Shown here: positions 9,379 through 10,183 of the stretch, one piece after another
Layout: every line of letters starts with the position of its first letter
Numbering within the stretch: the stretch's first letter is position 1
IMG/VR virus record: IMGVR_UViG_3300046484_000120
Source of the DNA: a virus
Length of the DNA: 27,620 nucleotides
Strand: one strand, 5' to 3'
Notes under the pieces: generated by a model
What the model saw: only the letters and a program-made list of their open reading frames with translations
Told to the model about the DNA's origin: nothing
The model's database searches: none
Program-made: the position numbers and the translations under genes

Positions 9379-9738
9379 ATGGAAAATGAAATTAAGTTTG
9401 ATGAAGAAACACGAAAGCTAATCAGGGCGTTCCGCGCTAAGGTTTCTGATGGACAATATGCCAGCAGAGCAACGCTATTAGCGTATTCTTTTCTTAAGCG
9501 GCGTCCTTATGTTGCATTAGAGAAGAAGATCAATGAGGATCATCCTAGCTTTGGGATTGGAAGAGATTCTTTCCTAAGCAATCTGGCATATGATATTGCA
9601 CACGAGATTAATAATTTAGTATTATCAGATACCAATGATGAATTGATTGCGCCGTCTGGTTTAAGAGATGACATTCAGCATTGGATTATGAAGAAGTACG
9701 AACCAGCCGCTGCTATTGCAGAAGAGAAAGCTGCATGA
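9379..9738 (+). CDS. hypothetical protein
   Basis: Track ORF 9361..9738, trimmed to the ATG at 9379 preceded by CAGGAG (MENEIKFDEE...). Its TGA stop overlaps the ATG of the PTH2 gene (ATGA). Confidence 0.5.
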   Translation: MENEIKFDEETRKLIRAFRAKVSDGQYASRATLLAYSFLKRRPYVALEKKINEDHPSFGIGRDSFLSNLAYDIAHEINNLVLSDTNDELIAPSGLRDDIQHWIMKKYEPAAAIAEEKAA

Positions 9739-10076
9739 CGTAGATTTCTGAAGGAGATAAACTTTACGTCATTACTAGGTCTGATCTTTCAAAGGGATAT
9801 CAGGCAGTTCAATCTATTCATGCACTTCGTTAGTTCGTGAATGATCATCCTGATATAGATAGGGAGTGGTATTCTAAATCAAACTATTTGGGACTTCTTT
9901 CTGTCAAGACCGAGAATGAGCTTTCTGAGTTGTTTAGAAAAGCTTGCCAATATGGCATTAGATGTTCAGTATTTAGAGAACCAGATATTGGTGATCAAAT
10001 TACAGCCATCGCCTTGGAACCCGGCCCCATATCCAAAAGGCTTTGTTCCAAGTTACCATTGGCCTTGAAGGATTAA
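9735..10076 (+). CDS. peptidyl-tRNA hydrolase, PTH2 family, containing two in-frame TAG codons (codon 3 at 9741-9743 and codon 33 at 9831-9833)
   Basis: A single reading frame gives M-T-TAG-ISEGDKLYVITRSDLSKGYQAVQSIHALR-TAG-FVNDHPDIDREWYSKSNYLGLLSVKTENELSELFRKACQYGIRCSVFREPDIGDQITAIALEPGPISKRLCSKLPLALKD. This aligns along its whole length with the PTH2 domain ([21 protein letters not shown]...W...PKVVVK...[21 protein letters not shown]...VTGHLKL). The track only reports the part after the second TAG (9837..10076, GTG start). Confidence 0.6.
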
Positions 10077-10093
10077 CACTTACAGCTTACAAT

Positions 10094-10183
10094 GTGCCCG
10101 TCGCTCAGTGGTCGAGAGCAACAGATTCTAAAACTGTCGCAGCCGAGAGGCTGCCATCGTGGGTTCGACCCCCACCGGGCACA
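10094..10183 (+). tRNA. suppressor-type tRNA, anticodon CUA (reads UAG), type II with long variable arm
   Basis: Cloverleaf: acceptor GTGCCCG/CGGGCAC; D arm GCTC-AGTGGTCGA-GAGC; anticodon arm ACAGA-TTCTAAA-ACTGT (U33, CUA, A37; A31·A39 mismatch); variable arm GCAGCC-GAGA-GGCTGC; T arm GTGGG-TTCGACC-CCCAC; discriminator A; no encoded CCA. Confidence 0.55.

Follow-up and report, generated by a model that had tools for sequence, protein, structure and literature searches.

Synthesis of a peptidyl-tRNA hydrolase-like (PTH2-like) protein in a huge phage is probably gated by a suppressor transfer RNA (tRNA) encoded immediately beside it. Both genes lie in a 27,620-nucleotide (nt) stretch of viral DNA (IMG/VR record IMGVR_UViG_3300046484_000120; hereafter the window, meaning the whole stretch). 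The PTH2-like gene (positions 9735-10076, + strand) opens with the leader ATG-ACG-TAG (9735-9743), which has an amber codon at position 3, and is followed on the same strand by a tRNA of amber-suppressor type with anticodon CUA (10094-10183). Completion of the protein requires decoding of the codon-3 UAG, the neighbouring tRNA gene supplies the decoder, and across relatives the anticodon changes in step with the leader stop. We favour a gate specific to this gene over genome-wide recoding.

A single reading frame runs from the ATG at 9735-9737 to a stop at 10074-10076, which is TAA and not TGA as first reported in an original prediction made from the sequence alone. It comprises 113 sense positions, two of which are TAG, at codons 3 (9741-9743) and 33 (9831-9833), as that prediction had stated. 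With TAG written as X, the translation scored 29.1 bits on the Pfam PTH2 profile (PF01981, curated cut-off 23 bits), aligning residues 9-100 with profile positions 2-103 of 115, whereas the 79-residue piece 3' of the second TAG scored 20.1 bits, under the cut-off. The homology therefore runs across the second TAG, in agreement with the continuous PTH2 frame originally proposed. A profile search against the PDB returned 2zv3 (E = 4e-6), and 309 homologues of the protein were found (P-numbers below denote homologous proteins and L-numbers loci of the comparison set). The AlphaFold 2 model of the closest full-length homologue (P0001, 76% identical) had a predicted local distance difference test (pLDDT) score of 96; its top Foldseek matches were 2zv3, 3erj, 1wn2, 1q7s and 1xty (template modelling score 0.69-0.77), that is, archaeal Pth2 and human Bit1. 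Membership of the Pth2 alpha/beta fold is thereby confirmed at the level of the predicted structure. From work in S. solfataricus, the catalytic residues of Pth2 are reportedly the Lys of a G-K motif and the Asp of a D-A-G motif. In the phage family the alignment is gapped at the GKGK motif, whose place is taken by an invariant G-Y-Q, while an invariant E-P-D aligns near the catalytic Asp.

To place the leader in context, approximately 190 loci were gathered from IMG/VR, JGI metagenomes, GTDB genomes and GenBank phages, anchored with a hidden Markov model, and a leader TAG was defined as an ATG, one to four codons and a TAG before the conserved (I/V)-K-x-G-D-K-L-Y. Such a leader occurred in 92 of 135 non-redundant homologues and persisted down to 44-50% identity. 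The four close relatives (77-96% identical) all read Met-Thr-TAG-Ile-Ser-Glu-Gly-Asp-Lys-Leu-Tyr, with GAG at codon 33 and a CUA tRNA 14-18 nt 3' of the gene. A leader TAG is also present in a cultured virus, Tenacibaculum phage pT24, where the PTH2 leader is ATG-AAA-TAG-ATA and an annotated tRNA-Sup lies 2.5 kb upstream. Within the gene body, TAG accounted for just 2 of 10,502 codons across homologues (versus 553 Gln codons), implying that it is no free synonym of a sense codon. One of these two is codon 33 of the window, which the original prediction had stressed and had placed in the catalytic segment. The conserved functional element is instead the codon-3 TAG: codon 33 is TAG in the window phage alone (GAG in L001 and L092; CAA/CAG in L093 and L005) and sits in helix 1, directly following the conserved His-Ala, at a site that varies between E and Q among relatives and holds no catalytic residue.

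Features around the leader identify its ATG as the predicted start of the gene. Shine-Dalgarno sequences of GGAG type begin at -12 to -8 from the ATG (mode -10) in 54 of the 61 loci having one. The in-frame stretch 5' of the ATG spans 2-48 codons in nearly all loci, and true upstream genes end in a frame other than that of PTH2, so the gene is not a read-through extension of another protein, and a fusion to an upstream protein was ruled out on these grounds. Between the window and L001, codons 4-12 differ by synonymous changes only. A purine immediately follows the leader TAG in all but one of the 92 cases (A 66, G 25, C 1), a context said to favour amber suppression in E. coli work by Bossi and by Miller, and the sense codon just before the TAG is often a rare one (CTA 28, ACG 17 and TCG 6 of 92). 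The leader TAG also explains why members of the family are routinely miscalled. Many database proteins (P0001, P0011 and others, as well as those of L092 and L093) carry a Q at the leader position where the DNA reads TAG, because gene callers used code 15 on short contigs; other entries are truncated to 79-105 amino acids (aa) and start after the TAG. Alignments of the former falsely support a TAG = Gln assignment, which we rejected.

The tRNA 18 nt downstream of the gene was recovered by more than one method. ARAGORN reported it at 10094-10184 with anticodon CTA, the Rfam tRNA model scored 53.4 bits at 10094-10183, and the minimum-energy fold was a cloverleaf with a 6-bp variable hairpin (z = -3.5), bearing out the suppressor tRNA first noticed in the sequence. 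It has G1-C72, A73, U33 and A37, a GAGA variable loop and no encoded CCA. An A31-A39 mismatch makes the anticodon loop formally readable as 9 nt, while relatives with a full 5-bp stem are unambiguously CUA, and alignment with the CUA tRNAs of relatives revealed compensatory changes in both the anticodon stem and the variable stem. The long variable arm had been taken as a mark of the type II (Leu/Ser/Tyr) lineage. The arm is present (6 bp and a tetraloop) but the lineage is not: the tRNA is the scaffold of the 72-75-nt CUA tRNAs of relatives plus a 16-nt insertion that forms the variable hairpin. Without the arm it is 76-81% identical to these and to other suppressor-type tRNAs of relatives, while its identity to the phage's own tRNA-Leu genes is at most 0.64. 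No close relative was found among the phage's own 28 sense tRNAs (best identity 0.68), from which an isotype had been sought. A hairpin of sequence CCGAAAGG also occurs in the variable region of an 82-nt tRNA-Gly(UCC) (window 22400-22481) and an 86-nt tRNA-Met (L176, 15499-15584), so a long arm is no sign of Leu, Ser or Tyr identity. The CCGAAAGG insert is likewise found within the CUA tRNAs of L055 and L074; such insertions seem to spread among the tRNAs of these phages irrespective of isotype. A promoter-like site before the tRNA (10065-10093), whose -10 box ends at the first base of the tRNA, was not above chance.

The leader stop and the tRNA are linked well beyond the window. Of the 92 leader-TAG genes, 67 have a CUA tRNA no more than 3 kb away, nearly always downstream and on the same strand; for 12 of the remainder the flank is too short to judge. 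An earlier two-by-two table, drawn from the first 91 loci, gave 39 and 2 versus 4 and 15. Where the leader stop differs, the anticodon differs with it. In L039 the leader is ATG-ACT-TAA-ATA and two tRNAs with a UUA anticodon lie 1 kb downstream; in L091 (CAAGKR010540089.1) it is ATG-AAA-ACA-AAA-CAT-TGA-GTT and a UCA tRNA lies 0.8 kb downstream. The frequency of the leader TAG, its co-occurrence with CUA tRNAs and these TAA/UUA and TGA/UCA variants together support the suppressor-dependent, gene-specific expression that the original prediction had suggested. None of the 17 open reading frames (ORFs) of at least 100 aa in L091 ends in TGA (TAA 12, TAG 5), and this may be a truly TGA-recoded phage. 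A distant PTH2-like homologue was also seen in the TAG-recoded Prevotella phage Lak-B8 (L193, 344154-350429), with no visible leader stop and with a UUA-anticodon tRNA 0.6 kb upstream.

We asked whether TAG might instead be a sense codon (code 15) in part of the genome, for example in late genes, in which case the PTH2-like gene would have many recoded companions. Recoding accompanied by suppressor tRNAs is well established in phages, code 15 was selected by gene callers on some short contigs, and two genes of the window phage carry three in-frame TAGs between them. In addition, the three matches in cellular genome collections were Bacteroidota metagenome-assembled genome (MAG) contigs, and Bacteroidota phages often recode TAG. 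However, TAG occupies one position only, as the 92 leaders against the two body codons illustrate. Coding density under the standard code was already 80-96% in the window and 27 loci of 12-20 kb, and reading TAG as sense brought no gain beyond that of TGA and TAA controls in these 12-27-kb neighbourhoods; the window itself went from 0.80 to 0.84, a smaller rise than with either control. The standard code leaves few gaps in the map of window genes. TAG also serves as an ordinary stop, ending 9.6% of genes in leader-TAG loci (about 10% of neighbouring genes) and 3 of the 31 window ORFs of at least 80 aa (TAA 17, TGA 11).

The same holds over a complete relative genome (LR756500.1; 462,018 bp, 24% G+C), whose PTH2 is 52% identical and has the leader ATG-AAG-TAG. 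Its coding density was 0.893 under the standard code versus 0.886 with TAG as sense, with no 50-kb block improved, and TAG ends 24 of its 477 genes. The single CUA tRNA among its 26 tRNAs lies 0.8 kb downstream of PTH2, which is the only clear leader-TAG gene without a nearby alternative start. Genome-wide reassignment of TAG was thus absent from the window, the leader-TAG loci and LR756500.1, and no aminoacyl-tRNA synthetase or release factor domain was found in Pfam scans of 30 window proteins. With a complete relative in the standard code, recoding appears confined to the gene, as had been predicted, and partial use of code 15 is unlikely.

The second in-frame TAG-bearing gene of the window (1874-2212, - strand; TAG at codon 27, 2132-2134) encodes a 112-aa hypothetical protein, has a good Shine-Dalgarno sequence and occupies a 357-bp stretch left empty by the standard-code gene map. 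Its homologue P0121 (115 aa, 67% identity) matches on either side of the TAG and is intact in the standard code, with GCG (Ala) at the TAG position. In-frame stops usually indicate a pseudogene, and the codon-33 TAG occurs in this phage alone, yet decay or sequencing error beside a coincidental tRNA is a scarcely credible account of these codons. Two independent assemblies, made from other sequencing runs and each matching the window at 99.98% identity, carry all three TAGs and the same tRNA, so that three assemblies from different runs agree and assembly errors can be discarded. Furthermore, the leader TAG is kept across approximately 90 lineages with purifying selection on the downstream codons, and every in-frame stop in window genes is TAG, with no TAA, TGA or frameshift. 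Together with the adjoining suppressor, this last feature suggests that suppression is efficient enough in the window phage for extra TAGs to be tolerated.

Residues of relatives at the TAG-aligned positions (E or Q; A) gave no consistent hint to the inserted amino acid. Among gap-filling ORFs bridged by a stop, TAG showed no excess over TGA or TAA. Candidate leader-TAG genes near PTH2 in other loci were set aside because ordinary start codons lie downstream, and an all-versus-all BLASTP of TAG-as-X ORFs, aimed at other TAG-containing genes, was dominated by off-frame matches of close relatives.

Several observations weigh against the proposed gate. The codon after the leader TAG is mostly ATT or GTT, and where it is ATT, initiation at this rare start codon is possible. 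A mini-ORF, ATG-x-TAG, could then end normally and the PTH2-like protein arise without the tRNA, through re-initiation or a start at the codon that follows (ATT, GTG and the like). This account fits the ATT, ATC or ATA that follows the TAG in most loci, and the arrangement in mycobacteriophages Catera and Myrna (NTG-TAG-GTG), where the Shine-Dalgarno spacing fits the GTG; these two were accordingly not counted as leader-TAG cases. We nonetheless consider it improbable. Roughly one locus in four has GTT, GTA, GTC, AAC, GGG or GAC after the TAG, and these are not start codons; the Shine-Dalgarno sequences are spaced for the ATG and not for the codon after the TAG; and in the window no complete protein would result, as codon 33 is also TAG. 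Such a mini-ORF would also leave the co-occurrence with CUA tRNAs and the TAA/UUA and TGA/UCA pairs unexplained. In Catera (L179, 90753-91450) the PTH2-like gp153 is preceded by ATG-TAG-GTG, and in Myrna (L190, 33036-33593) the PTH2-like gp84 by GTG-TAG-GTG. GenBank lists the tRNAs found 130-250 nt downstream as Arg (Catera) and Ser (Myrna), but ARAGORN reads both as CUA; the anticodon loop of the Catera tRNA is effectively 9 nt and readable either way.

Also on the unfavourable side, ten leader-TAG genes with at least 2 kb of flank have no CUA tRNA within 3 kb, and the expression, charging and UAG decoding of the CUA tRNA are predictions, with indirect support for charging and decoding from the in-frame TAGs in conserved genes of the same phage. 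The whole-genome code scan covers one complete relative, and the analysis covers some 36 kb of the window's own genome of approximately 392 kb. The canonical catalytic Lys of Pth2 is replaced in the phage family, making the substrate uncertain, so that the original description as a tRNA-recycling enzyme stands as regards the Pth2 fold while the role is read from that fold and peptidyl-tRNA hydrolysis is a putative activity. Lastly, the approximately 41 homologues without a leader stop mostly adjoin suppressor-like tRNAs too (CUA 5, UUA 3 and about 21 with an irregular ...UUCAA... anticodon loop), indicating a linkage broader than the gate. Judged from these gene neighbourhoods, adjacency of PTH2 and a suppressor tRNA appears to be the general rule and the leader stop its commonest elaboration. 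The irregular-loop tRNAs (...AUUUCAAC... or ...ACUUCAAG...) lie 0.4-1.7 kb 3' of PTH2 homologues without a leader stop (L040, L044, L050, L053, L054, L063, L065, L070, L071, L078, L085, L087 and others), and ARAGORN labels them '???', 'ttca', SeC(tca) or Glu(ttc). If the stem is taken as 4 bp and the loop as 8 nt, they may be opal suppressors with anticodon UCA, although genes in those loci end in TGA more often than in any other stop.

The usual proximity of the two genes could also reflect a homeostatic loop, in which the PTH2-like enzyme would strip the aminoacyl or peptidyl group from the suppressor tRNA itself: more suppression would yield more enzyme and hence less suppression, keeping read-through at a safe level. 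In line with this, the complete relative genome holds no clear in-frame target of the suppressor other than PTH2, the pair is adjacent in nearly all cases, and the active site departs from that of canonical Pth2. TAG is, moreover, still the normal stop of 5-10% of phage genes, which would make unchecked suppression costly. On the other hand, homologues lacking the leader stop still adjoin suppressor-like tRNAs, so the feedback arm is not universal, and the loop is silent on what the suppressor is for. We think it rather unlikely.

Under the gate that we prefer, ribosomes would initiate at the ATG at 9735, an ATGA overlap coupling this start to the upstream gene, and would meet the UAG after two codons. 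There, release factor 1 would end a dipeptide, or the phage CUA tRNA would insert an amino acid and allow the 113-residue protein to be made. Output of the PTH2-like protein would then follow suppressor activity relative to release factor 1. The upstream gene (9379-9738, + strand) encodes a 119-aa protein and is kept 5' of PTH2 in close relatives. Its TGA stop overlaps the PTH2 ATG, making translational coupling of the two genes probable. The protein had no Pfam or PHROG match, and its AlphaFold 2 model (pLDDT 61) was unusable.

Upstream of this pair, a small conserved ORF of 58 aa (9110-9286, + strand) closes with ATG-ACG-TAG and so repeats the nine bases of the PTH2 leader. Its TAG (9284-9286) is kept in the close clade (L002/L003, L012/L013, L014 and L025); the ending is ATG-ACG-TAG in the window, L012, L013, L014 and L025 and ATG-TTG-TAG in L002/L003. 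Past the TAG the frame reads V-S-K-F-H-W-S-R-G-P-P-V, a conserved stretch in which the window and L002 differ at third codon positions alone; the TAG is a possible second suppressor-responsive site. A hairpin (9315-9371, + strand) pairs CUCCUGUAAU (9315-9324), which begins 28 nt after this TAG, with GUUACAGGAG (9362-9371), the Shine-Dalgarno sequence of the gene starting at 9379. The minimum free energy was -31.9 kcal/mol (z = -3.4), and RNAalifold kept the 10-bp helix: the stems are conserved in four relatives and the loop varies, with no compensatory changes (in L002, one A-U pair is U-U and one U-G pair is C-G). No T-box-like or other known RNA element was detected, Rfam finding only tRNAs in the window. 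The hairpin and read-through may form a TAG-operated translational switch. A ribosome reading through TAG 9284 would melt the helix and turn on the 9379 gene and, via the ATGA, the PTH2 leader, such that the small operon as a whole may respond to read-through.

As to the purpose of the gate, we prefer the explanation that PTH2 would be supplied in step with suppression, since suppression raises read-through into 3' regions, with stalling, peptidyl-tRNA drop-off and hence a need for tRNA recycling. The feedback loop described above and a minigene-like role of the two- or three-codon leader are alternatives. A larger claim, which we advance only tentatively, is that PTH2 and suppressor tRNA constitute a widespread, self-contained two-gene circuit in standard-code huge phages. 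In such a circuit, the leader stop would match the partner anticodon (TAG/CUA, TAA/UUA or TGA/UCA), the hydrolase gene would be the suppressor's main and, in some genomes, only in-frame client, and the circuit would set or sense the level of read-through during infection, with the hairpin as an additional device in the window's clade.

The window is from a huge phage of roughly 390 kb found in soil or sediment metagenomes: the 9379-9735 product occurs at 100% identity on a public contig of 391,957 bp, and contigs of relatives reach 498 kb. No GenBank phage matched the locus by megablast. The window has approximately 43% G+C, holds 12 tRNAs besides the CUA tRNA, and encodes NAD kinase, SLOG/YpsA, transglycosylase, HD-domain, VWA, PD-(D/E)XK nuclease and major-vault-protein-like proteins. 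The last of these (712 aa; 4929-7067, + strand) has the shoulder and repeat domains of major vault protein (MVP_shoulder, E = 9e-28) and an 884-aa homologue in L002, and lies in a stretch with 50-52% G+C versus ~43% elsewhere. Arrays of 16 tRNA genes (L176, 11865-20672, left of the window) and 12 (window 17176-22564), both interspersed with HNH and HD genes, flank the region; the suppressor tRNA stands apart from both, next to PTH2. Directly 3' of it, a 43-aa Cys-rich ORF (...LTWCEICESYWQCGCG; 10190-10321, + strand) is kept in L001 and has no family match.

Elements of the gate have parallels in known systems. The release factor 2 gene, prfB, autoregulates through an in-frame UGA at codon 26 that is escaped by a +1 frameshift, and it senses its own product. 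As in prfB, an early in-frame stop in a translation-factor gene would here sense decoding or termination capacity, whereas the escape would use a dedicated suppressor tRNA encoded next door. The lambda bar minigenes are free-standing and toxic; they promote peptidyl-tRNA drop-off and make growth dependent on Pth. The PTH2 leader resembles them as a two- or three-codon ORF ending in a stop, with a last sense codon that is often rare, but this mini-ORF is in frame and continuous with a Pth-like gene, and drop-off from it is putative.

Suppressor tRNA recoding and a 'code change module' have been described in crAss-like and Lak phages (Borges et al., bioRxiv 10.1101/2021.08.26.457843), where PTH is not mentioned. 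As in those phages, the phage CUA tRNA would make genes with in-frame TAGs translatable in a standard-code host, and the in-frame stop is proposed as a timing or regulatory gate. Unlike in those phages, it is a single fixed codon (3 or 4) of one gene family in standard-code genomes, and the window has neither the aminoacyl-tRNA synthetase nor the release factor gene that accompany the suppressor tRNA in the module. PTH2 itself is known from jumbo phages and mycobacteriophage tRNA arrays, where it has been proposed to recycle peptidyl-tRNA in ribosome rescue (Iyer et al. 2021, PMC7824862; Morgado and Vicente 2018, PMC5966550). The proteins of those phages belong to the same family and are likewise encoded beside phage tRNA genes; those reports, however, describe no in-frame stop and no link to a suppressor tRNA, and the clade here lacks the canonical catalytic Lys. 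A literature search found no paper tying PTH2 to suppressor tRNAs or to a leader stop codon. PTH2 in phages and phage recoding were therefore each already known, and what appears to be new is the pairing of PTH2 with a suppressor tRNA, together with the leader stop.

A leader stop with a matching tRNA is a simple genomic marker, and Tenacibaculum phage pT24 offers a cultured system. The family also supplies many natural amber-suppressor tRNAs, which may serve genetic-code engineering. If the two-gene circuit outlined above is real, it would constitute translational control by a virus-encoded suppressor tRNA, of which we found no description. Phage suppressor tRNAs are usually taken as signs of whole-genome recoding; here they occur in standard-code genomes in which their clearest target is one conserved codon near the beginning of the adjoining PTH2-like gene. 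The finding thus suggests that a suppressor encoded by a virus can control a specific gene, and that suppression of stop codons and hydrolysis of peptidyl-tRNA are functionally tied.

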